From NCBI GenBank assembly GCA_000165345.1, contig CM000431.1, positions 384,001-448,000 of the forward strand: a stretch of 64,000 nt of DNA, written 5' to 3'. The translations under genes and the position numbers were made by a program. A model generated the notes under the pieces. It saw only the letters and a list, made by a program, of their open reading frames with translations. It was not told the origin of the DNA and searched no databases. Of this stretch, positions 2-52,372 are shown piece by piece (the stretch's first letter is position 1; the number at the start of each line of letters is the position of its first letter).

Positions 2-2827
2 ATGAGCGAAGAAAAGAGGTTCAAAATTGTAGTTAGACCTTTAAATGGGAGGGATTTAACAGTTGAAGCTTCTCAAACCTCAACAATTCGCCAGCTAAAA
101 GTTCTGATAGAGGTACAGAGCGGGATTGAAGCTATAAACCAACGTCTAATTTTTCGAGGAAGATGTATGCTTGATGATGATACTGTTGGTACATATATTA
201 AAGAGGATGGAGTAATAATACATTTGGTTCCATATGCAAGAAATCAGAGAAATGAAGGCTCAGCTCAACCTGCTTCTGAATCCAGATCAAGAGCTTCGGG
301 AACTGGAGGAAATGCTGCTAACATCCACAACCTTTTTGCTGCAACATCTGGAATACCAGGTTTGAACACATCAATAGGAGGATTTCCTGGTGCAATGATG
401 TTTGGAGCAATTAGATTAGATGGTGAAACAGGTCTTCCCTTGGAAGCTGAAGATTTGATGCAAAGAGTGTTGAGAACTTTTGGAGATGCAGTAAACGGTA
501 ATGGGATAGATCAAAATCTGATGAATATTTCCACAGGAACTGGAGATAACAGAAACTTGGGCTCAGTAACGTTTGATTCATTCGCTGTTGGCCAACCAAC
601 AACAATACCTGGCTTCTCAGGACTTATTTCTAGTACAGAAAGAAGCAATCAGGAGTCTTTATCCTCCAACACTGATGCAAACAGAACCACAACATCCGCA
701 TCAACTGGTGCTACCGCCAATAATTCTGCAAACTCATCCGCTACTGTTACAGGAACTGAAGGTAGGAGAAGCTCAAATACTAATGGTGCCAATATGAACC
801 GTTCTGGAAGCAATACGGACTCTAGGTTAAACAACAACTCAGCACAAGCTCAAGGAAATTTCAGAGGTGGGAACGGAGAAGGTATTAGAGGTGATCCGAT
901 GAATAGCAACCCAATTGGGAGGATTGGGACAATTGTTTCCAGAATTTTCCAGGCCTTTAATCAACCAGTAGGAGAAGGAATCCAGGAAGGAGAAACCAGG
1001 TCTGAAGGCAGAGTTAGTCAGGCTGGAATCGGAAATGGAACTGGGTTGGAAACTGGGGCTAGGGCTGATGTGGGTTCTGGCGCTAACCAGACTGTAGCTT
1101 CTGATAGAACTTCAGGAAACACTACTTCCCAGGATGTCAGGGGGAGAGTTATTTCAAGTCCAGCCTCTGGTCTGAGCTGGACCCAGATTGCATCTTCTGG
1201 GGCTCTGAATACCGGTAGAACAGGTGTACTGCCAATAGGACGTCCAGGTTTAGCAGTTGCAACGATTCCAATCTCTAATTTTTCAATTCCAATTACAATT
1301 AGAGCTACTTCTTCTACGGGGATCCCCTCAATCAATCTTTCTCAGAGCTCAAATACAGTAGCCAGCGTAGCTGCACCCGCCCAGGGGGAGTCAGCCTCTG
1401 CAAGAGCTCCAACAGATACTGGTAGCACTCCATCATCTAATACAAATGTGTCTGAGGCCTATAGAACTTCTTCAAACAATTTCTTTAGGAATATCTCAAA
1501 TGTCCTAGAAGAATCAGCAAATCAGCTACGAACAGTTGCTGCTGGAATCAGAGAAATGAGTGGATTAGAAGGTCCAAGTAGAACTGAACAGAATAGGGAG
1601 GGCTCATCCTCTTCGTCCTCTCTACCTCCAATCCCCTCTAGTGTGAGTAGCAGAAGCATTTCGGGTGAAAATTTGGCTTTGAGTGGCCAGACTTCTGACT
1701 ACATTCAGCACCATTCGCATAGACTTTATATATCTAATGAAGTGGTTCATAGGTTCCTTCCTTGGGACTCTCTTAACGAACTGATGGATATATTGGAGAG
1801 AGATTGTGGATGGAGAAGACCCAGAATTACAATTCCTCCCCCTGTGGATTCTATTGATGCTAGCCCATTGGCAATCTTTATTTCAGTATACCTCCAGGCT
1901 ATGTCAATAGTTCAGTCCAATTTAATGCAAATACAAGCATGGCAAGAGAGGTTTGCCAGATTAGATATCCCAAGACTATGCTATACAGTACATTTACTTG
2001 CGCTTATTTCACATATTTCGGCTCATATTGGCTCACTTTTAGCCTGGCTATTCCAAAATATGGCGCAACATGTCGAACAGGACAGACTTATTGAAGGACT
2101 ACAGTGGAATAGGTCTAGTAATGAAATTGAGAATCCTATAGATATAGTAGAAAAAAGACAAGATACTTCAGAAGAAACTAAAGGAATGGATGTAGATGAA
2201 GAGACTCCATGTGAATTGATTGGAGAAGATATCTTAAATAATGCTAATTTGAATCAAGATAACCAGGATATCAAAGATAATACAGGAAATGTAGCGAAAA
2301 TGTTTGAAAGAGATAGTTCTAGCTTTGGTTTTAATAATGCAAATACAAACTCATCCTCCAATGTGGGCTATGATCAAAACAACGAAGAAATAATAAATAA
2401 GCTTCCTGATGAAATTAGGGAAAAATGGGAAAGATGGACTGGTAATCCACAAAACTTCTCCAGAAATGTTTTTGCCTCATTCTCCACCAGACCCTTCAGT
2501 GATACATACCAACAAGGTGATGTGTTCTCCAGCAGCTCGAGTTTTGGATTCTCCCAACCCTCCAATGAGAATGGAAACACATCAGGTAGTAGAATTAATA
2601 GTCATCCTAGCTCCCAAGAACTTTTGAGAATGATTATTCACCAAACAGAAGCTAATTTGAATATTAGCAGCTCCTCGAATTCTCGTAATTATACTAATAT
2701 TCAGGCTGAATACCGTTCAATGCTAATCAGAGACCTAATAAATATTGCAAGGAATGACTCTGACTTTCTTAATAATCGAAGCAGATTTCCGTACCTACAA
2801 AGAATTATTTCCCTTTTATATGAGTAA
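2..2827 (+). CDS. Ubiquitin-like (UBL) domain protein. It has a long S/T/N/G-rich disordered middle and a C-terminal helical region. A BAG6/Scythe- or ubiquilin-like role is only a guess.
   Basis: ATG at 2-4. Residues about 7-77 (KIVVRPLNGRDLTVEASQTSTIRQLKVLIE...IFRGRCMLDDDTVGTYIKEDGVIIHLV) form a beta-grasp ubiquitin fold. The upstream sequence is cut by the window edge, so the true start is not certain. Confidence 0.55.
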   Translation: MSEEKRFKIVVRPLNGRDLTVEASQTSTIRQLKVLIEVQSGIEAINQRLIFRGRCMLDDDTVGTYIKEDGVIIHLVPYARNQRNEGSAQPASESRSRASGTGGNAANIHNLFAATSGIPGLNTSIGGFPGAMMFGAIRLDGETGLPLEAEDLMQRVLRTFGDAVNGNGIDQNLMNISTGTGDNRNLGSVTFDSFAVGQPTTIPGFSGLISSTERSNQESLSSNTDANRTTTSASTGATANNSANSSATVTGTEGRRSSNTNGANMNRSGSNTDSRLNNNSAQAQGNFRGGNGEGIRGDPMNSNPIGRIGTIVSRIFQAFNQPVGEGIQEGETRSEGRVSQAGIGNGTGLETGARADVGSGANQTVASDRTSGNTTSQDVRGRVISSPASGLSWTQIASSGALNTGRTGVLPIGRPGLAVATIPISNFSIPITIRATSSTGIPSINLSQSSNTVASVAAPAQGESASARAPTDTGSTPSSNTNVSEAYRTSSNNFFRNISNVLEESANQLRTVAAGIREMSGLEGPSRTEQNREGSSSSSSLPPIPSSVSSRSISGENLALSGQTSDYIQHHSHRLYISNEVVHRFLPWDSLNELMDILERDCGWRRPRITIPPPVDSIDASPLAIFISVYLQAMSIVQSNLMQIQAWQERFARLDIPRLCYTVHLLALISHISAHIGSLLAWLFQNMAQHVEQDRLIEGLQWNRSSNEIENPIDIVEKRQDTSEETKGMDVDEETPCELIGEDILNNANLNQDNQDIKDNTGNVAKMFERDSSSFGFNNANTNSSSNVGYDQNNEEIINKLPDEIREKWERWTGNPQNFSRNVFASFSTRPFSDTYQQGDVFSSSSSFGFSQPSNENGNTSGSRINSHPSSQELLRMIIHQTEANLNISSSSNSRNYTNIQAEYRSMLIRDLINIARNDSDFLNNRSRFPYLQRIISLLYE

Positions 2828-24412: not shown

Positions 24413-25357
24413 CTATTTGATTCTCCCAACATTCCTCTTTAAGTTGGTTTGATATGGGACACCCTGAACCTGAATCTGAGTCTGATTTGAATTTGATATT
24501 TGTTGTCTTTTTTGACAAACCTTAGCAGAAGTCAAAAATAACTGATAATTGTATAATTGGTTTAAGAAGCCTGGATTTGGCGCCACATAGGGCCTAGACA
24601 ACTTAATTAGATTTAAAGCTTGTAAAGAGCTAATCCCTAGTTCTCTCATTAGAAAGGCCGTACAAATTGTTGGAGCTCTGCTAATACCAGCAGCACAATG
24701 TATGTAGACATTATTAGGTCTTTCCACAGTAGATTGAGATAGTGCATTGTGAATAAAATCAAAAGATGAGGAGAAATATTTACTAATATCTTCAAATGGA
24801 GTATCATAAATAGGGATATTCAAATACAAAAATTCATTTGGAAACTTGCATGCACCCTGTAGACAACATACAATGTGAGTAATTCCAAGGTCCTTAAGTT
24901 TTTTTAAATCATTTGCTACAGTGCTTCCTCCTAAGAAAATTCCAGGAATAATCCTTTGGGCTCTGTGAAGATCCAAATTCTCTTTATTAGAATACTGGAC
25001 CTCTTTTTGAAGGATATCCCTGAAACCCAAACGATTGATTGAGCTGATGATAGTCCTCATATTACTTTCAACTTTCTCTTCATAATCTTCAATTGTGCTT
25101 TTTGGAGAAGTTACAAGTGCTCCATACAAGCTAATAACTTGGTCTAAAGAGCATATTAAGCTTATTGTTTCTTGTATCTGCATCCCTTTCATAGGCTCTG
25201 GCGTCTTTCTTTTCAACTGATGGAGAATGCGTAAAGCTGCAAAATAAAAGTTTACTCTCTCTGGTAAAATTAATTCTGATTCAGTTGAACCGCTGATATT
25301 CTCAACAACTGCCATCCTCTCAGATCTTTTATCTATTAGTCTCTTCAAGGCCTCCAT
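24413..25357 (-). CDS. Dual-specificity protein phosphatase (DUSP) with an approximately 140-aa N-terminal extension.
   Basis: Catalytic loop VYIHCAAGISRAPT (HCxxGxxR) with an upstream general-acid region. Confidence 0.8.
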   Translation of the reverse strand: MEALKRLIDKRSERMAVVENISGSTESELILPERVNFYFAALRILHQLKRKTPEPMKGMQIQETISLICSLDQVISLYGALVTSPKSTIEDYEEKVESNMRTIISSINRLGFRDILQKEVQYSNKENLDLHRAQRIIPGIFLGGSTVANDLKKLKDLGITHIVCCLQGACKFPNEFLYLNIPIYDTPFEDISKYFSSSFDFIHNALSQSTVERPNNVYIHCAAGISRAPTICTAFLMRELGISSLQALNLIKLSRPYVAPNPGFLNQLYNYQLFLTSAKVCQKRQQISNSNQTQIQVQGVPYQTNLKRNVGRIK

Positions 25358-35101: not shown

Positions 35102-35503
35102 ATTCTTCTCTTGTATACAAGAGGAAGAAAAGTTGTGTTTTCTAATCCACTGATACTTTCATTTATTGTAAATAACCAAATAGTTCACGTTTTAAGTTAA
35201 AATCAAATTTCAATTAGTTTTTATAATACCTTATTTAATTAATTTCCCCCCCCCCCTTTTATTTTTTAATACCGGTATTATTTTCATGTGGATAATTGTA
35301 TTAGTTGTCAGAATGCATGCACGCAATTTTTATGTCATTTTTTACATGCAGAGAAATTAGCAATAAAAATCGTAATAAAGGAATAGAAAAATCATTCCTA
35401 TTGTATACAAAAAAAAGAATAAGAAATTACTGCGATATTAAACTAAGATAAAAATTTGATAAAATATAGCTCGGATAATAAAAGGTAGAATTTATTTGGT
35501 AAA

Positions 35504-38500
35504 ATGCTATATTTGAAGTTTATATTAAATATTCTTATCTTTTTTGCAGGCAAAACACTCTCGGAGCCTCTTCCATTTTCATCGGATGAGGTTACCGTTG
35601 TTCCATTTCCTCCTTTCATCCCAGTAGCAGGAGGTTATGTACCAGAGCCACAAAATAATGGAACAACTATTGATTACGTCCAAAAAAGTAGGAATGACTA
35701 CTTTGGGAGTGAGTTAAGCCAAATAGTAAACTCCCCAAACTTTCATCTGGTCACTATTCAAAATGGAGAACAAAATAAACAAGTTTGGGCGTTTGTACTT
35801 GGAAATGAAAAGAAAGTATTTGCATATAGAACAGAAAACATAAGTATTACTGATCCACTACATCTGGGAAGTAATTGGAATGTTATCAGTAATAGTGAAT
35901 CGAACGTTTGGCCAGTAAAAATGAGATTTGTATACCCTTCTTGCCACAATATGGTTAAAGATAAGGATGAAGAAGGGGTGGATTGCGGAGGTCCTTGTAA
36001 ACCTTGTAATATGTTTAACAGTTGTAGAATTGGGCTGGATGATCTAAGAACACATAAAATTTTAAAGTACTCCACATGTATTGGTGAGTTGAAACATGGA
36101 GAGTTTTGTTCTCTCACATGTCCTGTTGGATATAGAATGAAAGACTTAACCAAGATGAAGAGTGAAATTTATTCTCAGTGTTATGATGGAAGGCTCAACC
36201 AACTGATATTTGGGAATATGCAAGCCCCAATGACAGGAGAAAGCTACTATTCAAGAGAATATAGAGGATTTAGAAACATGTTGGAAAGTGAGGTGAGTCA
36301 TTTGGATCAGGAGTTTAATGAACTGTGTGAGTCTCCCTTTGAATATATGTGTAAATATATTTCTTTAAGGTTAAAAAGGTCATCTTTGGAAGAGGATGGA
36401 GAAGGAATAAATTATAGAATGCCTTGTGAGGGAATTTTTACGGCAGTACCAAGATATCATGGTAAAAAGAGCTATTGGGTGTCAGTCAATTCAAGAGGTG
36501 AAAGAGTTACTTTATTTTGGAAGGAAAATACTTGGATATGTGTAAACACCCTCTCAAATTCTGTATTGGGTTATATTCAGGATTCAAATCCAGCTTTATT
36601 GTTATCTGAAGAGCATATGAGTAATTTAGTTTGGATACCATGGTCAGAAAATGGTCCTTTAAATCAAAATAGGTCATATGTTATATTAAGATGTAGTAAA
36701 AAGAAGCCAAGAGAAGTTCCAGGTAGATGTAATTCACTTACAATGCAAGGTTGGAATTACGGAACCAATTACAATGGTATATGGGTATCTGTTGGTGAAA
36801 GTACTGATATTTTTAATGGAGATATAAGAGGTATATATATTAAGCCATATAGCAATTTAGTATTACTATATAATATGTATAAATTACAATGGGAAATATA
36901 TGAACGCTTGGGGGATGTTTCATATGAAAAATTGAAGCAAGTAATGCGACAAGATGGAAAGATTAAAGATAGAGTATTGAATGAAGAAAACACTTATCTT
37001 AAGGAGAACAATAAAGGATGGGTACTTAGAGCAATGAATCCACACCCAAATCCTTCTCCTCCTAAGGGAAAATGGCTCACTACACCAAAAAGTAATTTTG
37101 AGGAAGAAAATATATTGCAAATAAAATACTATCATATTGATGTTTATTGTGATTCAAGCGTAACTACTCTATCTGGTGGTGATGTTCATCTTAGTCCAAT
37201 AAAGCTGGTAAGAGCAATAAATGAGGATCCTGTTGTATGTTCATCAGAGAAGCCAGTAACTAGCTTTTCACTCAATTTGGACTTTTCAAATTTAGCATTC
37301 AAACCAAGAAATAGTTATATTGATAGGTATGATGGTAGATTTTCTGGAAATGGTTGCAAGTATATGGAAGTTAAAGGAACCACAATAGAGGCAACGGAGT
37401 GCTCAGGATTCTTTAGAAAAGAGGAGTTAACTCAGGGTGAAACCATTTGGAAGAAGATTGCGAGCAACTCTAGAATTGTATTATTTTATTGGACAGGAAT
37501 TAAATGGATTTGTACAAGAAATGATAGTAGTAATACGATACTTGGATATATTGACAATGAAGAACAGGAAGAAGGGTATTGGTTGAATAAGATTGATTCT
37601 TCAGCAGGAGCTTACATAAAGACAAGAACAACATTGAAATGTTTTAAAAATCATCCTCAGGAATCAGGAGCTGAACATTCTTGTAACAGGGCATTATTGA
37701 AAGGCTGGCCTATTGGAATGGAAGCTTTAAATGGAAATTGGGACTTGAATAGATATGAAGTTTATATTGAAGGAAACAAAAATGGAGATGAATTGAGCAG
37801 GAGTAAGAAGGAAATTAAATACTATGAACACAGGAGATCTGATGGATGTAAATTATATCTTTATTTTGATGATAATGTGGGCTACACAGTTATTACTAAT
37901 AATCATCCAAAAAGCAGACCAGAATTGGAAAACAAGAAAGACAAAAAGAATAAATATATTGCAATTTATAAGGACGAACTTCAGGGAACTCCTATATTAA
38001 AAGGACAAGATTCTCATCACGTTCAATGGCTATATTATCCAATTGATGAAGATAATATGGCAAATTTGAGTTCTCCAAGAGCGCTTTCTAGTACATATAT
38101 TTACACTAAATGCCGAGATAATGAAGAGCATTATTCTAAAAGACAAAATAGTCAAGGAAGAGGTTTTGATGAAGAAGATATGAATAATTCTATTAATTTT
38201 AGTAATGAAGGAGAGAATAAGAACAATTCTCAATTACAAAATACAAGTACAAAGAAACAAAATAGAGTTTCATTGGGAGGTAGAAAGCTAGCTAAAGGTA
38301 AATCAATTAGCAAAATTTCTCAATGTAGTGAATACAAAATTATGGGATTTAATAAGCCTTTGGAATCTTTAAATGGAATTTGGAAAAGGGATGAAAGTTA
38401 TCCAAAACAAGGAGAGACTTCATCTGCAGAATCAATCTTGGAACTTTATAAATGTACAAATAGTAATGACAAGGATATTTATATTTATTATTCGGAGGCT

Positions 38501-40354
38501 CCTTTAAATAAGACTGGATGGTTTTTGGACTATGATCTTAATCCATTGAATGGTTTCATTGCATTGGGGACTAATAGCACTTCAGATGGATTAACATCTT
38601 CTTGGAGACTTTGGAGTTTAACAGAAAAGAAATGGAATAATTTGGACCTTAGTTTGGAATGCCAAGATCAAACTAATAATTCTAATGTTAATAATAAAAA
38701 GACAATTTTTACTACTACTGATAGCAAAGTATTGGTGAATGGATTTGAAGTATTGGAGAGTGAATCTCCAAAAGAATTGAGTATAATTCCTTTTGAAGAT
38801 GTGGAGGATCATATAAAAACCGCACCAATTCGTGAAATGCCAATACCATTTTTCACTGCAAGCTTACCATTAATAGGACAATTAGCAGCAAATGCTTTTC
38901 CTATGATAAAAGGTATATCAAGCTTAGCTCCAAAGAAGCCAAAGCCAACAAATGAAGATTTATTAGGATCACCAGTGACAGCATCAGCAATTTTACCCAA
39001 CTTGGACATATTTTCAACTGCTGAACAATTAAGACAAAATATTACAAAGAGCAGACAAAATGAAAGGCCTAGTATATATTATGATCCATCTTTACTTCCT
39101 CGAAATAGTATGAATGGAAATAATATTCCTTCAGTAATGCCTTATGATCAATTTGGCCCTCCTGTGAATATGTATAATCCAAGAAATGACATTCCCAACT
39201 ATAACTACTTGCCAGGACAACACAATATGTTTTATTCTCCTATAGGGCCTGGAAACATTCATAACAATAATATGTTTGATCCCAGTCTGGGTCCAAGCAA
39301 TAACTATTTTTATAATCCGTACAATAATAATAATTTCAATGGTATTCAACAACAACAAAACACTGGAAATGAGATGAGAGATATTTCTTACTTGAATAAT
39401 CAGCAGCAACAGCAACAACAACTTCTTCAGCAACAACAGGAACTACAGAAGGAGCAACTTGAACAGCAGCAACAGTTGCAATCTCAGCAGCAACAGCAAC
39501 AGCAGAAATTACAAAAGCAGCAGCTAGAGCAGTTTTACCATCCAACTCAAAATGCACAACAAATTAATGAAATACCAACATTGGCAGGAGATCATGAAAG
39601 CGTTAATGGCCAACTATTATACTATGTAAACGGAAATTTTAGCCAAGGAGGGAATAATTTGGAGATACCTGTTTCTACAAGCACAACTACTACCACAACA
39701 ACTACCACCACAACCACAACAACTACTACTACCACAACAACAACTACCACCACAACCACAAGTACAACTACCACCACAACTACTACCACCACAACTACTA
39801 CTACCACAACCACAACTATTGCTACTACTACTGAAATTGAAAATTCAAATAGAGATAACATGATTCCAGGAATTTCAGAAGAGGGAAGGAAAGAGTGTCC
39901 TGAAGATAAAGAGTGGGTAGTGGAGCATGGAAAGTTATTAACTGAATCAGGGAGCATAACAAATAAGTACAAGGTGATAATTGTGAGCATTTTGTATCAA
40001 GAAGATTTAAAGCTAAATTATTTACAAGGAGTATATAGTTTCAACGGGATTTTCAATGGCAGACCTTCATATAGACATTTTGTAAATGGAGTAAGAAATG
40101 AATCAAATAATCTTCCAGAGTTAAAAACTTCAAATTTGGATGTTTCACTTTTTTATGACAAGAGATTAAGGTCATGGATATTCGGAGATTTAGAGAATAT
40201 TGGTTATAATACAGAAGAGTCAATATATATAAGAAGCTCACAAAGTGACTGTCTTGTTCCATGGGACTCCACGATTACATGGAAAAATGCAAGTAATTCA
40301 GCTTCTTTACCATTAATTATTTCAGTAAGAGCAGGAGAAAGCATTAATTATTAA
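35504..40354 (+). CDS. Large secreted mucin-like glycoprotein. It has a signal peptide, a Cys-rich region, three copies of an approximately 300-aa module, a poly-Q/N/P linker, a roughly 50-residue poly-Thr tract and a C-terminal globular domain.
   Basis: N-terminal signal peptide MLYLKFILNILIFFAGKTLSE. Cys cluster CGGPCKPC...C. A repeated module marked by GW..G...NG.W (MQGWNYGTNYNGIWV, LKGWPIGMEALNGNWDL, IMGFNKPLESLNGIWKR). A CAG/CAA poly-Q stretch (39401-39535). ACN-codon poly-Thr (39676-39832). Confidence 0.8.
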   Translation: MLYLKFILNILIFFAGKTLSEPLPFSSDEVTVVPFPPFIPVAGGYVPEPQNNGTTIDYVQKSRNDYFGSELSQIVNSPNFHLVTIQNGEQNKQVWAFVLGNEKKVFAYRTENISITDPLHLGSNWNVISNSESNVWPVKMRFVYPSCHNMVKDKDEEGVDCGGPCKPCNMFNSCRIGLDDLRTHKILKYSTCIGELKHGEFCSLTCPVGYRMKDLTKMKSEIYSQCYDGRLNQLIFGNMQAPMTGESYYSREYRGFRNMLESEVSHLDQEFNELCESPFEYMCKYISLRLKRSSLEEDGEGINYRMPCEGIFTAVPRYHGKKSYWVSVNSRGERVTLFWKENTWICVNTLSNSVLGYIQDSNPALLLSEEHMSNLVWIPWSENGPLNQNRSYVILRCSKKKPREVPGRCNSLTMQGWNYGTNYNGIWVSVGESTDIFNGDIRGIYIKPYSNLVLLYNMYKLQWEIYERLGDVSYEKLKQVMRQDGKIKDRVLNEENTYLKENNKGWVLRAMNPHPNPSPPKGKWLTTPKSNFEEENILQIKYYHIDVYCDSSVTTLSGGDVHLSPIKLVRAINEDPVVCSSEKPVTSFSLNLDFSNLAFKPRNSYIDRYDGRFSGNGCKYMEVKGTTIEATECSGFFRKEELTQGETIWKKIASNSRIVLFYWTGIKWICTRNDSSNTILGYIDNEEQEEGYWLNKIDSSAGAYIKTRTTLKCFKNHPQESGAEHSCNRALLKGWPIGMEALNGNWDLNRYEVYIEGNKNGDELSRSKKEIKYYEHRRSDGCKLYLYFDDNVGYTVITNNHPKSRPELENKKDKKNKYIAIYKDELQGTPILKGQDSHHVQWLYYPIDEDNMANLSSPRALSSTYIYTKCRDNEEHYSKRQNSQGRGFDEEDMNNSINFSNEGENKNNSQLQNTSTKKQNRVSLGGRKLAKGKSISKISQCSEYKIMGFNKPLESLNGIWKRDESYPKQGETSSAESILELYKCTNSNDKDIYIYYSEAPLNKTGWFLDYDLNPLNGFIALGTNSTSDGLTSSWRLWSLTEKKWNNLDLSLECQDQTNNSNVNNKKTIFTTTDSKVLVNGFEVLESESPKELSIIPFEDVEDHIKTAPIREMPIPFFTASLPLIGQLAANAFPMIKGISSLAPKKPKPTNEDLLGSPVTASAILPNLDIFSTAEQLRQNITKSRQNERPSIYYDPSLLPRNSMNGNNIPSVMPYDQFGPPVNMYNPRNDIPNYNYLPGQHNMFYSPIGPGNIHNNNMFDPSLGPSNNYFYNPYNNNNFNGIQQQQNTGNEMRDISYLNNQQQQQQQLLQQQQELQKEQLEQQQQLQSQQQQQQQKLQKQQLEQFYHPTQNAQQINEIPTLAGDHESVNGQLLYYVNGNFSQGGNNLEIPVSTSTTTTTTTTTTTTTTTTTTTTTTTTTTSTTTTTTTTTTTTTTTTTTIATTTEIENSNRDNMIPGISEEGRKECPEDKEWVVEHGKLLTESGSITNKYKVIIVSILYQEDLKLNYLQGVYSFNGIFNGRPSYRHFVNGVRNESNNLPELKTSNLDVSLFYDKRLRSWIFGDLENIGYNTEESIYIRSSQSDCLVPWDSTITWKNASNSASLPLIISVRAGESINY
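39401..39535 (+). repeat. CAG/CAA-rich coding repeat (poly-Gln) in the mucin gene.
   Basis: CAGCAGCAACAGCAACAACAAC... Confidence 0.7.
39676..39832 (+). repeat. Imperfect ACN trinucleotide (Thr-codon) repeat array encoding the mucin poly-Thr tract.
   Basis: About 52 consecutive ACA/ACT/ACC codons, interrupted by AGC, AGT, ATT and GCT. Confidence 0.8.
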
Positions 40355-41069: not shown

Positions 41070-43523
41070 ATGCATAAAAGTAAGTCTTTGGATAATTATC
41101 AAGAATGGGATAATAAATTGGCAGAGGAATATGAATATTCTCCATTAATTATTACAGAAAAAATAAGTGAATATACAATGCCAAGTGAAATTTTGCTCTA
41201 TAATCCAACAGAAGATGATATATTTACCAAATTTCATGCGGGATCTTCAAATGAGTTCAAAATTCGTCAAATATTTCTACATGTTGATTTACTTGAACAA
41301 GAAGAAGAAATGTTGATTGAATTTGATAACTTTTTAACTAAAAATTGTATAAAGTTACCAGAATTTATTAAACCTTTAATTTTAAGAGTTTTAATGTTTA
41401 ATAAAAGACGTCATCCTAACACTTATATACAAAGATCAATGAATCATTTAATTAGTATGTTTAAATGGAGGGTTTCAACTTATCCATTAAGTGATATGGA
41501 AAGTAATTTAAGAGAAGATTTAGAATCTGGAATCATATATTGGCATGGGAGAGATTATTGTTTAAGACCAATCTTAACAATAAGATTATCAAAAGTTAAT
41601 AAACATTTTCCATTAGAAAGATTTATTAGATTAATAGTATTTTGTATGGAATGGGGAATGAGATATTTAATGTGCCCTGGTAAAGTTGAAACATGTTTGG
41701 CTCTTATTGATATGAAAGGAGTGAGCTTGACCTCTTTTCCAATTTCCACAATGAGTGAAATTTCATCATTATTAACAAATCAATATTCTTTCAGACTTTA
41801 TAGAATGTTTATACTACATGATTCACTTTTCATTCAAACTGTTTGGAGTTTAATGAAGCAATTTCTTACAGATTTACAACAGCACAAAATTGTATTAAGC
41901 AGAAATGAGATAAAAACTCAGTTATTCAAAACTGTCCATCCAAATCAAGTTGAAGAACATTTTGGTGGATTACAAAAGAATAAAACTTTTCCATTTTATC
42001 CCTTTATTTTTCCATCTGGACCTTTTTCTGATCCAAAATTACATCCAAATAATGGTTTTACACGTGTTGTTAATCAATGTAATATTGAACAAATGGATAA
42101 TTTTTCCAAAGTTACTAATTGCCATCTCTTATTTAATAAATTTAATGTTCTTGGTAAGCTATATTACAATGGTAACAAACATAATAAAATTCTTTGGGAT
42201 GAAAAAGGACTTGAAGAGCTTAATGATACAATTTCATCTTTTTTAAATATTAATTTAGATGATGATAAAAATTCATTCAGCTTTGATAAAAACTCTAATC
42301 ATTTAAATAGTAATATTAAATCAGCTAATAATCATGATCATTATTATAATAATAATCATAATTATTATGTGGGTAATAATAACAATAATAACAATAATAA
42401 TAATAACAATCATCATCATCATCATCATCAACATCGTCATCAACATCATCATGACAATAATAATAATCTTCTTCATAACAGTAATAATGATTTTTCAATC
42501 AATGAAATATTAAACTCAGATAAGAAAAATAATGATGATATTGAACAGATAGAAAAGTTGGAATTAAAGAGTTATTTAATGGAGCATACAGATAATATGA
42601 AATTAGATAATTTGTCAATACCAAATCAAAAGATACAATCTACTAATAATGAGGATAGAGATTTATCAGCTGAAATTAATATTGGTATAATCAATACAAT
42701 TAATATGAATACAGATATTGCTAATATTGGTGATATGAGCCAACATTTTATAAGAGAATATTCAGTCTTATCAGAATCTCCAAATTTAGCAGAAAATATT
42801 GCAATGATTATTGAAGATTCTCAGAGTTTCTTTTCTGCTTCTTCAAGTTTGTATATTAATGAAGATAATGATGAAAATCCATGTGTTGAAGATTTTCATC
42901 ATAATTTAATAATTGATAATCCTTGTTGTGATCATAATGTATTTCAATCTTTTGGAGTTTTACCAATAGCTATGGAAAGCTTTAAAAATTCAGGAAAAAA
43001 ATCAAAAAGTTGTTTAAAGTCTTCAAATTATTGTAAAAATTCGAATATTGTTAATGAAGAAAATAATAAATCCAATTTAATTAACACATATAATCCAAAA
43101 ACTTCAAATAATGCAATACTGAATAATTTTATTGAAGAAAATGGAATAATAAATAATAAAGAACTTTCGAATCAAACAAAAAGTTTGAAGGATGTTAATA
43201 AAAAAAATAATAATAATATTAATGACAATAGTTCATATATTATAAGTAATGACATATTACGAGATTATGACCAAATTGTACCAAAGAGGTCAAATTTGAG
43301 TTTATCTTCACCAATTATTGATATCAATCCTCCTGTTTCAGCTTTAAATACTTCATCTTCTCGTATAAGTTCAATGGAAAATACTAAATTGAATGATTCT
43401 TTTAGTTATATAGGTAAATCTCATGAGAGCCAGAAAATTTCAAGAAAGAGCAAAATTAAATCAAAGATTTCTAGAGTAATTAATAAAATAAAAAATAGAA
43501 CTTCTATTATTGAGAATGAATAA
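41070..43523 (+). CDS. CRAL-TRIO (Sec14-like) lipid-binding domain protein with a long Asn/His-rich low-complexity C-terminal half.
   Basis: Residues about 60-290 (IYWHGRDYCLRPILTIRLSKVN...LIDMKGVSLTSF...) fit the Sec14 fold pattern. An AAT/CAT-coded poly-N/poly-H tract lies at 42374-42470. Confidence 0.6.
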   Translation: MHKSKSLDNYQEWDNKLAEEYEYSPLIITEKISEYTMPSEILLYNPTEDDIFTKFHAGSSNEFKIRQIFLHVDLLEQEEEMLIEFDNFLTKNCIKLPEFIKPLILRVLMFNKRRHPNTYIQRSMNHLISMFKWRVSTYPLSDMESNLREDLESGIIYWHGRDYCLRPILTIRLSKVNKHFPLERFIRLIVFCMEWGMRYLMCPGKVETCLALIDMKGVSLTSFPISTMSEISSLLTNQYSFRLYRMFILHDSLFIQTVWSLMKQFLTDLQQHKIVLSRNEIKTQLFKTVHPNQVEEHFGGLQKNKTFPFYPFIFPSGPFSDPKLHPNNGFTRVVNQCNIEQMDNFSKVTNCHLLFNKFNVLGKLYYNGNKHNKILWDEKGLEELNDTISSFLNINLDDDKNSFSFDKNSNHLNSNIKSANNHDHYYNNNHNYYVGNNNNNNNNNNNNHHHHHHQHRHQHHHDNNNNLLHNSNNDFSINEILNSDKKNNDDIEQIEKLELKSYLMEHTDNMKLDNLSIPNQKIQSTNNEDRDLSAEINIGIINTINMNTDIANIGDMSQHFIREYSVLSESPNLAENIAMIIEDSQSFFSASSSLYINEDNDENPCVEDFHHNLIIDNPCCDHNVFQSFGVLPIAMESFKNSGKKSKSCLKSSNYCKNSNIVNEENNKSNLINTYNPKTSNNAILNNFIEENGIINNKELSNQTKSLKDVNKKNNNNINDNSSYIISNDILRDYDQIVPKRSNLSLSSPIIDINPPVSALNTSSSRISSMENTKLNDSFSYIGKSHESQKISRKSKIKSKISRVINKIKNRTSIIENE
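42374..42470 (+). repeat. AAT/AAC then CAT/CAC coding repeat (poly-Asn then poly-His).
   Basis: NNNNNNNNNNNNHHHHHHQHRHQHHHDNNNN is encoded by simple triplet repeats. Confidence 0.7.
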
Positions 43524-44904: not shown

Positions 44905-45593
44905 AGTTTAAATGCAAATTAAAGAGATTTTGATTAAGGGTTTTTTTTTTCTTTCTAAATCTAAATATACATAAGTAATTGAGAATACATAATTAAACTA
45001 TAATAGAGATAATATTCGCTTATAATAGTACGGTTTATAAAGATTTTCAAAGTCTTTATTTCCTTTAATTTGGAATTTTGAAAATTTTACCTTCAAAAAT
45101 ATAATTTTTTTAAAATAATTTTTGTAAGATATGCCATTTGGTAATAATGCATGCAAAAAACTTTGTTCTAATACCGGCGACACGTAATTATTTTATACCA
45201 TAATTCTTTAAAATTTAATAATTGGCAATATTTTAAAAATTTGGAGATTTTCTAATTGTATGCTTTTGTTCTTGTTTGGTTTATTAGAAAATTCGATTAA
45301 CTTTTTTTCCTCGATTCTCTTCCTCTCACTTTCTCTTAAAATACTTTTGCTTCAAATGAATTTAAATTTTCTATATATTGATTATAAAAAAGTTGAAAAC
45401 GTTATCATATCTTAAAATCATTTCAAGAGTAAAAAAAAGTTGTATGTTGAAATATTATTAAAAGTGAATTTATCAAATAATTTAAGACAAATCAAAATTT
45501 ACAAATAATTCAAACTAATAATAAAGAATAAAATTATACATGTTCATTTTTTTCAATCAAAAATAATTTTGTCCATTGACAATTAATTACTTC

Positions 45594-46616: not shown

Positions 46617-48150
46617 CTTTAATTAATTAAGTAAAATATAAAAATAGCGGAGTAAAAGATAAAATAATATAAGTTCTGATTGAGCTAAAATAACTTTTAC
46701 AAAACTGTTTGAATTATGAAATTTTCCCTAATATTGCTTTTTTGACATGTATTTACTATGGATTTTACACGCATATACGCGTCCCAAAAAAAAAAACAAA
46801 TCAACGTCTTGTCTATACCGCCAGTAAAGTGTAAAATTGTAAAATAATTATAATTACGTTTAATGTGTATAGGTATATATAAAACGAGAAATTTTTTTTT
46901 TTTTTTTTACTGATGTATATCAAGTAATTTAAAAGGTGTAAAAGCTAGGAATAATTATTAAAACGTAAATTCAGATTTTCACTACGCATTGTATACACTA
47001 GAAAATTTTTTCAAGAATGAAAAGTGGCATTGATATATTAATTAAATTAGTAGGCAGATAAGCTACGGGTCAAAATATCCGACTTAATGTCAAAAATTAT
47101 TCATTTTTAGATTGCATTAGAGGACGTTATTATTACTAACGTTATAATAATTACAGGATATCTATTATGTAGGAAAGTATTTGTATCAACGTTATTATGA
47201 TATTACCCTCAACTTTTTCTATTTTATTATTTATTATCTCCGAATGATTTTGAAGTAGTAATTTATTTTAAAGAAAAATTAAATATATTGAATTATTGTA
47301 TGAGAAAAAATAGAACTTGATAAACTTGTTTAGAAAATTATTTGAATTTAGGAAATTGATTTAACATTTACTTGAATATTTTAAATATAAATTAATAAAT
47401 ACAATACAACTCAAAATTTAATTTGGCAAGTGATCGTAACAAGAAAGCTATTTAGAAATTAAAGGTAATTCATTAATCACTTGTTTTATATTATTTAATT
47501 AAAGAATTTAGCTTTTTATTTTCTCAATAATATATCAACTCATTAAAATTAGTCATTTTGCATGCAATGTATAGTACCGGCATGCGACAATATTTAATTA
47601 ATAATATTTCCACATGAATTTATCAAAATGCATGCATTTCCACATTAAATTTTTTCCGAGTATTAATAGTAGTGTATTTTAATGAATGACTTTAATTGAA
47701 AAAAAAAAAAAATTTGAAATAAATATCAAATTGCGATGAATAAAAGCAAATTATATGAATCAAGATAATAAGAAGAATGAAAGAAAATTAAATTCTAGGA
47801 TTTGATTAACTAACAATGAATAAATTTCTAAAGATTGATTAAAAAAAGTAAAAAAGATGAGTTTAATTAAATTGCATGCAAAAATAAGAAGCGCTGGAAT
47901 TAGAAATAATATGAATAATATGAAATATTGAGGAGCAAGAACATAGAAAAAAATATTAATCGGTTTACAAGTAAACGATATCTAGGGTTTAAGTTAAGGA
48001 ACAATTTTTTTTAAATTAATTACTAAAAAAATCCTTATTCCTCTGAAATTATAAGAAATACCAGGGTTCGAATGTAAGGAAAGTTATAAATAAGGTATTA
48101 AACAAGTTATATAATGACAATAAGATAGAAAGGAAAAGTAAGCAATTAAT

Positions 48151-52335: not shown

Positions 52336-52372
52336 TTTCCCGCCAATACGAAGATTTTGCATGCATGCAAAA
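52336..52372. promoter_or_regulatory. E2F-like box TTTTCCCGCCAATACG plus TTTTGCATGCATGCAAAA, inside a 76-nt convergent 3' intergenic spacer.
   Basis: It lies between the GH31 stop (52314) and the DEAD-box helicase stop (52391). Confidence 0.4.

Follow-up and report, generated by a model that had tools for sequence, protein, structure and literature searches.

cgd3_1540 (POWP3) of Cryptosporidium parvum, a female-stage secreted mucin-like protein with repeated predicted beta-barrel domains and a putative role in the oocyst wall

Among the described proteins with which the subject of this study can be compared are the mucin gp900 and the oocyst wall proteins of the COWP family. The subject itself is POWP3, encoded by an open reading frame (ORF) at 35504..40354 (+ strand) of a 64-kb stretch of C. 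parvum DNA (assembly GCA_000165345.1, contig CM000431.1, positions 384,001 to 448,000), here called the window. Like POWP3, gp900 (cgd7_4020) is secreted and combines poly-Thr tracts with Cys-containing domains. However, PMC9111948 describes it as a type-I transmembrane (TM) microneme protein of the invasive stages, whereas POWP3 has no TM segment and is female-specific, and gp900 was returned as a relative by neither the word-indexed nor the HMMER homology searches. The COWPs share with POWP3 a signal peptide, the lack of a TM segment, disulfide-rich domains, late female-specific expression and presence in oocyst wall preparations. On the other hand, they have a Cys every 10-12 residues (PMC12548878), while POWP3 has 29 in 1616 amino acids (aa); Pfam, word-indexed and HMMER searches gave no sequence relation between the two, and the tandem type I/II repeats by which COWPs are recognised were not found in POWP3.

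What, then, is POWP3? The reading that best accounts for the data, to which we give a probability of roughly 0.6, is that it is a soluble, anchorless glycoprotein of the female stages and a putative structural cross-linker or tether of the oocyst wall. Its signal peptide would take it into the endoplasmic reticulum, where the domains would be locked by disulfides, and dense addition of O-GalNAc to the Thr tract in the Golgi would make a stiff, protease-resistant stalk. The protein would then presumably be stored in the wall-forming bodies of the female and released when the wall is formed. There, the conserved array running from the N-terminal domain to domain B2 (see the feature list below), which is common to Toxoplasma TGME49_309030, may integrate into the proteinaceous inner wall, while the mucin stalk would keep the C-terminal barrel at a distance, providing a cross-linker or tether within the wall or on its inner face.

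The window is C. parvum chromosome 3 and the ORF is the gene cgd3_1540 (UniProt Q5CUT6, CpPOWP3, "possible oocyst wall protein 3"), because gene order, mass and annotation text agree. An earlier reading of the bare sequence, hereafter the original prediction, had placed a 1616-aa ORF here, and the ORF listing of the window gives exactly that, with an ATG start. The computed mass of the product, 184.65 kDa, is the value listed for Q5CUT6 / cgd3_1540 (PMC9508764 supplement), and the annotated features (signal peptide, Cys-rich, Thr-rich, possible mucin) fit the ORF. The genes in the window run in the order PFK, PP2C, CDK-like kinase, FAST/RESC6-like, SDE2, POWP3, CRAL/TRIO (Sec14), GH31, DEAD helicase and START. 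PFK1 is cgd3_1400 (PMC1779779) and the PSTAIRE CDK is cgd3_1510 (PMC3227725); the kinase encoded in the window does contain PSTAIRE. The ORF lies downstream of both, between the SDE2-like (cgd3_1530) and Sec14 / CRAL-TRIO (cgd3_1550) genes, a position that fits the orthologue group OG5_164075 (OrthoMCL). In genomic position, mass and described features, no difference from cgd3_1540 was detected. The AGP1/AGP2 glycoprotein family was also considered and ruled out, since the AGP proteins are of ~56-66 kDa and their loci are different. The gene, its gross features and its candidate association with the wall were thus already known from annotation and literature.

The timing of expression is distinctive. 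By reverse transcription PCR, cgd3_1540 is undetectable at 2-24 h, and the 48-h and 72-h time points account for 9% and 90% of its signal, respectively (PMC3305300). In RNA sequencing, its log2 counts per million (log2CPM) are 2.08 in asexual stages and rise to 11.14 and 11.13 in females from culture and from mice, a log2 fold change of 9.07, or ~500-fold (PMC6877471 supplement). A second dataset from the same study gives values of 2.9-4.0, 0.5-1.3 and 10.4-10.5 for three groups, presumably sporozoites, 24-h and 48-h samples, to judge from the order of the paper's sample sheet and its 24-h versus 48-h description (PMC6877471). At 72 h, HCT-8 cultures are >80% sexual; fertilisation takes place in vivo only. 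The transcript is almost exclusively a female-gamete product, because the sorted-female data and the 72-h timing in sexual, unfertilised HCT-8 cultures both say so. It falls into the late class II profile, as do some COWPs (PMC3734150), and a review describes a second wave of female expression that includes mucins, a C-type lectin and glycosyltransferases (PMC13657310).

POWP3 owes its definition to a mass spectrometry study in which oocyst walls were purified after excystation (Chatterjee et al. 2010, cited by PMC3734150 and PMC3305300). It is represented by 18 peptides in a wall proteome from 2022 (PMC9508764 supplement) and is also present in a tandem mass tag (TMT) proteome of excysted oocysts, where its intensity is ~20-70 times that of its two genomic neighbours. 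Together, the expression and wall proteome data favour a wall or wall-associated structural glycoprotein over an invasion adhesin like gp900.

Several points weigh against a structural role in the wall. POWP3 is listed in the proteomes of sporozoite-derived extracellular vesicles (PMC11039866). Wall proteomes carry many contaminants, and ribosomal proteins stand in the same list as POWP3 (PMC9508764). According to the account of Chatterjee et al. given in later papers, POWPs occur only in "trace amounts" in purified walls. No published localisation of POWP3 was found in the literature searched, and we infer, rather than observe, that it is O-glycosylated, stored in wall-forming bodies and active as a cross-linker. 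Finally, the coccidian orthologues are without the mucin tract and the C-terminal domain; therefore, a stalk with a distal head cannot be the conserved core function.

Some of these points could also mean that POWP3 is a secreted product of the female gamete or zygote that builds no part of the wall, being instead, for example, a gamete surface coat, a fertilisation factor, a component of the parasitophorous vacuole lumen or a part of the oocyst residuum; it would then co-purify with walls merely through its stickiness and heavy glycosylation. Female-specific expression, the reported trace amounts and the contamination of wall proteomes would all suit such a product. However, POWP3 is found in two independent wall preparations, its late class II timing is that of COWPs, and it persists in mature oocysts at the high TMT intensity given above. 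We consider a non-wall product unlikely, and return to the putative wall glycoprotein, whose sequence features are as follows (window coordinates, strand, feature):

35313..35322, unstranded: palindromic TGCATGCA, an AP2_1-type ApiAP2 site ~182 bp upstream of the ATG
35504..35563, + strand: signal peptide, aa 1-20 (MLYLKFILNILIFFAGKTLS before EP), from hydropathy, orthologue conservation and annotation
35564..35941, + strand: N-terminal domain (N), aa 21-146, a degenerate type-2 copy by hhalign
35942..36007, + strand: 4-Cys "CGG" mini-module, aa 147-168 (C-x-N-x-VKD-x-DEEGVDCGGPCKPC), from profile matches
36023..36328, + strand: tentative Sushi/CCP-like (complement control protein) Cys domain, aa 174-275, whose last Cys is preceded by an insertion specific to Cryptosporidium, from profile comparison with the PDB
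36350..36694, + strand: domain A1 (type-1), aa 283-397, with conserved Cys at its borders and W344-I-C346, from hhalign and AlphaFold2 (AF2)
36728..37150, + strand: domain A2 (type-2), aa 409-549 (C...GW...NGIW...LLYN...W...PP..W...VYC), from hhalign and AF2
37355..37642, + strand: domain B1 (type-1), aa 618-713, with W668-I-C670, from Smith-Waterman and hhalign
37682..38113, + strand: domain B2 (type-2), aa 727-870, from Smith-Waterman and hhalign
38114..38323, + strand: N/S/K-rich low-complexity linker, aa 871-940 (N 15%, S 14%, K 11%), poorly conserved with C. serpentis
38324..38662, + strand: domain C (type-2, single), aa 941-1053, the "third copy" of the original prediction, from z=4.5 against module B and hhalign
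38663..39073, + strand: conserved non-repeat segment, aa 1054-1190, containing the moderately hydrophobic PIPFFTASLPLIGQLAANAFP, conserved with C. serpentis
39074..39532, + strand: disordered linkers, N/P/Y-rich (aa 1191-1281) and then Q/L/E-rich (aa 1282-1343), from composition
39674..39844, + strand: poly-Thr mucin tract, aa 1391-1447, 48 Thr in 57 residues
39896..40354, + strand: C-terminal domain (Ct, type-2), aa 1465-1616, with the stop codon, from hhalign

The predicted signal peptide holds up. Residues 1-19 are the sole TM-like stretch in the hydropathy plot (mean Kyte-Doolittle 1.63), and the peptide appears cleavable because its K5 n-region, hydrophobic core and T-L-S / E cleavage context all fit. 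The segment is kept in the orthologues of C. serpentis, C. felis and C. hominis, and "signal peptide" also appears in CryptoDB-derived names of cgd3_1540. A Kyte-Doolittle scan of all 1616 aa found no second hydrophobic segment reaching 1.3 or above and no hydrophobic C-terminal tail; the next highest peak, at aa 1114-1132, reaches 1.26, below the TM level. There is therefore no TM segment or glycosylphosphatidylinositol (GPI) anchor, and POWP3 is a soluble, secreted, anchorless and presumably glycosylated protein. The N/P/Q-rich linker of the original prediction is really two consecutive stretches, one rich in N (23%), P (13%) and Y (9%) at aa 1190-1290 and one of 51% Q at aa 1290-1345, with L, E and K interspersed and a longest pure Q run of 7; CAG/CAA repeats lie at 39401-39505. 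The Thr tract does have about 50 Thr, as had been said, but is not uninterrupted, being broken by S and by I-A, and its coding DNA is an imperfect ACN repeat (39683-39832). With a signal peptide and a dense Ser/Thr tract suited to O-GalNAc addition, POWP3 qualifies as a mucin-like protein in the sense used for Cryptosporidium; no glycoproteomic record for it was found in the literature searched.

Is POWP3 then a surface or secreted adhesin, as the original prediction proposed, and one like gp900? Such a protein would be stored in sporozoite or merozoite apical organelles and attach the parasite to host mucus or epithelium, like gp900 and gp40/15. It would account for the signal peptide and the mucin tract, for the presence of POWP3 in sporozoite-derived vesicles and in excysted oocyst material that includes sporozoites, and it would be in keeping with the many C. 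parvum mucins that act as adhesins. The transcript, however, is absent at 2-24 h, when merozoites form, and its log2CPM, which is 10.4-11.2 in females or what is presumably the 48-h culture, is 0.5-4 in the presumed sporozoite and 24-h groups. There is no TM or GPI anchor, and the lectin-like fold expected of the repeated module was not found. A secreted, Cys-rich, mucin-like Cryptosporidium protein with internal repeats was rightly recognised, then, and equating it with gp900 rightly avoided. The adhesin role is very unlikely in the light of the silence at 2-24 h, the female log2 fold change of 9.07, the wall proteomes and the missing TM anchor.

The putative wall glycoprotein is built largely as a string of predicted beta domains, each of ~100-140 aa and presumably bounded by disulfides. 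The original prediction had described a module of ~300 aa in three copies, each marked by W-x-C followed by GW..G...NG.W. Its internal repeats are indeed significant in self-comparison: in segment-wise Smith-Waterman alignments, aa 300-480 against 610-800 score 116 (z=13) and aa 610-800 against 930-1060 score 59 (z=4.5), with 0/200 shuffles in each case, while the remaining segment pairs, set against 200 shuffles likewise, are at noise level. A self-BLAST of the whole protein gave the identity match only, and Pfam had no match in the ORF product. The second part of the marker, G[WF]...NG.W, occurs three times as claimed (aa 416, 734 and 948), but W-x-C is found at aa 344 and 668 only. There are therefore two full modules and a half module rather than three copies of ~300 aa. 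Module A (aa 283-549) and module B (aa 618-870) are ~21% identical; in the third unit (aa 941-1053), the first half of a module has no counterpart.

Each full module is divided into a type-1 and a type-2 domain, and their relations were traced by hhalign comparison of per-domain orthologue profiles that included distant orthologues; with the two Cryptosporidium sequences alone, the type-1, type-2 and C-terminal domains were not related. With the wider profiles, A1 matches B1 at 98.7% (E 3e-16) and A2 matches B2 at 98.5% (E 4e-15). Domain C matches A2 (90.7%, E 1.2e-6) and B2 (86.6%, E 4.5e-6). The N-terminal domain matches B2 (91.8%, E 7.3e-7), the C-terminal domain (88.5%, E 2.7e-6) and A2 (78%, E 1.8e-5), and B2 also matches the C-terminal domain (79%, E 1.7e-5). 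Since these values exceed those of reversed-profile controls (8.8% at most), the profiles identify five type-2 domains (N, A2, B2, C and Ct) and two type-1 domains (A1 and B1). By profile comparison, the anatomy is twice a type-1 plus a type-2 domain, together with three single type-2 domains at the N-terminus, at aa 941-1053 and at the C-terminus. The C-terminal globular domain of the original prediction is thus present (aa ~1465-1616) and related to the repeated one. Matches between type-1 and type-2 are marginal (35-46%, E 2-4e-4), and type-1 is possibly a divergent version of type-2.

The domains have in common the signature C-x2-h-x-h-x-G-x(5-7)-NG-x-[YWF] ... [GR]RP-x-[YF] ... L-[YF]-[YWF] ... 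G-x-W-x-h ... A-[YF] ... PP ... W ... h-x-h-x-C, which in the C-terminal domain reads NG-x-F..GRPSY...LFYD..SW-x-FGD...PW...W. The 29 Cys are irregularly spaced and placed at domain borders, and 26 of the 27 that can be aligned are kept in C. serpentis at 37% overall identity, as is domain C, which is highly conserved between the two species. A conserved Cys pair makes up the first and last residues of the type-2 domains and would form a disulfide joining the first and last strands.

What fold do these domains have? AF2, given an alignment of 14 A/B modules, predicts two all-beta domains of eight strands each for module A (mean predicted local distance difference test, pLDDT, 74.4; predicted template modelling score, pTM, 0.70). 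The pLDDT of A1 is mostly 76-90, and the only low-confidence part is the genus-specific insertion in A2 (~aa 468-505, pLDDT <50). For the N-terminal 264 aa, the model is poor (pLDDT 45.7). Foldseek comparison of the module A model with the PDB gave nothing below E 0.03 and no lectin, and PDB sequence searches with the modules gave chance matches or none, so the lectin- or adhesin-like fold once proposed for the module finds no counterpart among the sequences and structures of the PDB. The repeat domains are instead predicted to be small beta-barrels of an uncharacterised family, common to Toxoplasma and other apicomplexans and not recognisable as lectins. Among the known systems with which they may be compared are the 8-stranded up-and-down beta-barrels of avidin and streptavidin, the lipocalins, the linker barrel of giant haemoglobin and de novo barrels.

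Between the Cys-rich mini-module and A1, the profile of aa 174-275 has four matches in the PDB, all of them complement CCP modules, with E values of 0.0088-0.34 (factor H CCP15, E 0.0088; DAF, E 0.041). Pfam Sushi (PF00084) matched one of ten orthologues at E 0.0023 and left the window protein unmatched. Neither the PDB nor the Pfam matches reach curated thresholds. The segment is tentatively regarded as Sushi-like.

How widely is this array distributed? Word-indexed searches with the full protein and with an 8-sequence alignment as queries returned only C. serpentis, C. felis and proteins with a DCGG motif. The C. serpentis protein (ACR3K2_31210) is 37% identical and colinear over aa 2-1231, syntenic, and truncated where its contig ends. 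When a two-species profile of aa 21-1060 was run with HMMER against the full set of 1.84 billion representatives, 94 proteins were found. Three are orthologues, or fragments of them, from Cryptosporidium (C. serpentis, C. felis and C. hominis). In the remaining 91, the best match is at or near the 4-Cys motif C-x-N-x-x-K-D-x-x-E-E-G-V-DCGG-P-C-K-P-C (E<=1e-3); nearly all match nowhere else, while six match over a longer stretch. With the Besnoitia protein as the query, Toxoplasma TGME49_309030, Hammondia HHA_309030 and an orthologue from Neospora were retrieved as well, and several of these proteins bear names transferred from cgd3_1540. The literature searched offered nothing relevant on TGME49_309030.

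In the 8-sequence alignment, the N-terminal 870 aa are wholly colinear, with invariant Cys, Trp, NG and PP positions. The core from N to B2 has been kept in Toxoplasma TGME49_309030 as well as in Neospora, Besnoitia, Cystoisospora and Rhytidocystis. Orthologues from coccidia (Toxoplasma, Neospora, Hammondia, Besnoitia and Cystoisospora) have N, CGG, Sushi-like, A1, A2, B1 and B2 in the same order as POWP3, but at only ~23-25% identity and without the Cryptosporidium insertions in the Sushi-like module and A2. The C-termini were compared for Toxoplasma, Cystoisospora and Besnoitia. Unlike POWP3, the Toxoplasma (1092 aa) and Cystoisospora (869 aa) proteins stop just after B2, without domain C, Q-rich linker, Thr tract or C-terminal domain; the Besnoitia protein (998 aa) ends within B2. 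The Rhytidocystis pertsovi protein P0007 and the EukProt transcript P0011, on the other hand, have the full architecture, including the isolated third type-2 domain, a long S/T-rich region at the same position as the Thr tract and the C-terminal type-2 domain. These sequences, which are transcriptome-derived, differ from POWP3 in their length (2091-2444 aa) and in having S/R-rich linkers and no poly-Q. Cryptosporidium and Rhytidocystis thus have a mucin stalk and a distal domain that the coccidian orthologues compared at their C-termini lack.

The archigregarine Filipodium phascolosomae has the same parts in another arrangement, a 690-aa protein (P0022) with [beta domain - DCGG - Cys-rich module] twice and then one NG-x-Y domain. 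Every relative with a name belongs to Cryptosporidium, the coccidia, Rhytidocystis or the gregarine Filipodium, lineages that transmit via walled oocysts or spores; none of those returned by the homology searches is haemosporidian. Among public orthologue models, those of C. hominis TU502 (XP_665316, P0003, 287 aa) and C. felis (KAF7459170, P0002, 737 aa) are truncated and end in residues that no longer agree with the window protein, as would be expected from frameshifts or breaks between contigs.

The Cys-rich region with CGGPCKPC noted in the original prediction is EEGVDCGGPCKPC at aa 157-168 and belongs to the DCGG module, which spans ~24 residues with the consensus C-x-[DN]-G-x-[QK]-[ND]-x-x-E-[TE]-G-[VI]-DCGG-x-C-x-[PA]-C. 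Residues 147-168 of the window protein (C-H-N-M-V-K-D-K-D-E-E-G-V-D-C-G-G-P-C-K-P-C) conform to it. The module is widespread and often tandem in large proteins from genomes and metagenomes (P0004-P0100), one carrier being a bacterial fn3 protein sorted by the type IX secretion system (T9SS). In the matched proteins that are not orthologues, D/E-CGG occurs 417 times, up to 17 times per protein; hmmscan matched no Pfam model to the module.

The barrels invite more speculative readings as well. Conceivably, the seven disulfide-stapled domains form an undescribed apicomplexan barrel family that binds a non-protein component of the wall, such as an acid-fast lipid or a glycan; cgd3_1540 and TGME49_309030 would then be a conserved organiser that links wall layers in those apicomplexans whose transmission is by walled oocysts or spores, and to which Cryptosporidium and Rhytidocystis added the stalk and distal barrel as a tether for sporozoites or the glycocalyx, a proposal that we think improbable. 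Slimmer still is the chance that the domains are calycin-like barrels for small hydrophobic molecules, coupling the acid-fast lipid layer of the wall to its glycoprotein inner layer. What suggests that the barrels could bind a lipid or glycan is a weak fold similarity.

The structural wall glycoprotein, which we prefer to either, is of some practical interest. The oocyst wall is the source of the chlorine resistance and water transmission of Cryptosporidium, and few of its components beyond COWPs are validated. Abundant, female-specific and conserved across Cryptosporidium, coccidia and Rhytidocystis, cgd3_1540 is thus a reasonable, though not unique, candidate for tagging or knockout. The domain map, with barrel borders at conserved Cys, Cryptosporidium-specific insertions and a lineage-specific mucin and distal domain, would help the design of constructs and antibodies, and attention is drawn to two families of sequences that lack curation, namely the barrel domain of apicomplexans and the DCGG 4-Cys module. 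The basic picture given by the annotation is unchanged: a secreted protein, rich in Cys and Thr, that is possibly a mucin and possibly part of the oocyst wall. What the analysis adds is a corrected repeat anatomy, a barrel fold predicted for the domains, a tentative Sushi-like segment, the identification of the DCGG module and the lineage distribution of the mucin stalk and distal domain.

Upstream of the gene, the AP2_1-type site at 35313..35322 is consistent with late expression of cgd3_1540 but does not prove it. AP2_1-like motifs are found upstream of class II (late) COWP genes and 72-h clusters (PMC3734150). The motif BGCATGCAH has 20 sites in the window against 2.1 expected, a ~10-fold over-representation, and they cluster in intergenic regions (for example, 24846-24855, 35313-35322, 45147-45156, 47558-47881 and 52357-52370), three of them lying upstream of the GH31 gene at ~47.5-47.9 kb. 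The AT-rich intergenic DNA upstream of cgd3_1540 also contains a run of 11 C (35246-35256), unusual for a genome of ~30% G+C.

The window as a whole carries long intron-free ORFs at a G+C content of 23-43%. The highest value, 43%, is that of positions 1-2000, against 23-36% elsewhere; an ORF at 2..2827 (941 aa) runs off the start of the window there. On the minus strand of cgd3_1540, two antisense ORFs at 39622-39990 (122 aa) and 39131-39436 (101 aa) encode poly-Val and poly-Leu; they are mirror images of the poly-Thr and Q-rich tracts and not genes. The neighbouring Sec14 / CRAL-TRIO protein, cgd3_1550 (41070-43523, + strand, 817 aa), has a long poly-Asn run and then a His-rich run (NNNNNNNNNNNNNHHHHHHQHRHQHHH). 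On its other side, cgd3_1540 is separated from SDE2 by 402 bp of non-coding DNA (35102-35503). In C. serpentis, the same gap between SDE2 and the POWP3 orthologue holds a gene for the succinate dehydrogenase flavoprotein (L001, 7632-9518, minus strand; FAD_binding_2 / Succ_DH_flav_C, 628 aa). Intestinal Cryptosporidium species have lost complex II and the tricarboxylic acid (TCA) cycle (PMC5146892), and what appears to be a clean deletion of this single gene within conserved synteny fits that loss.

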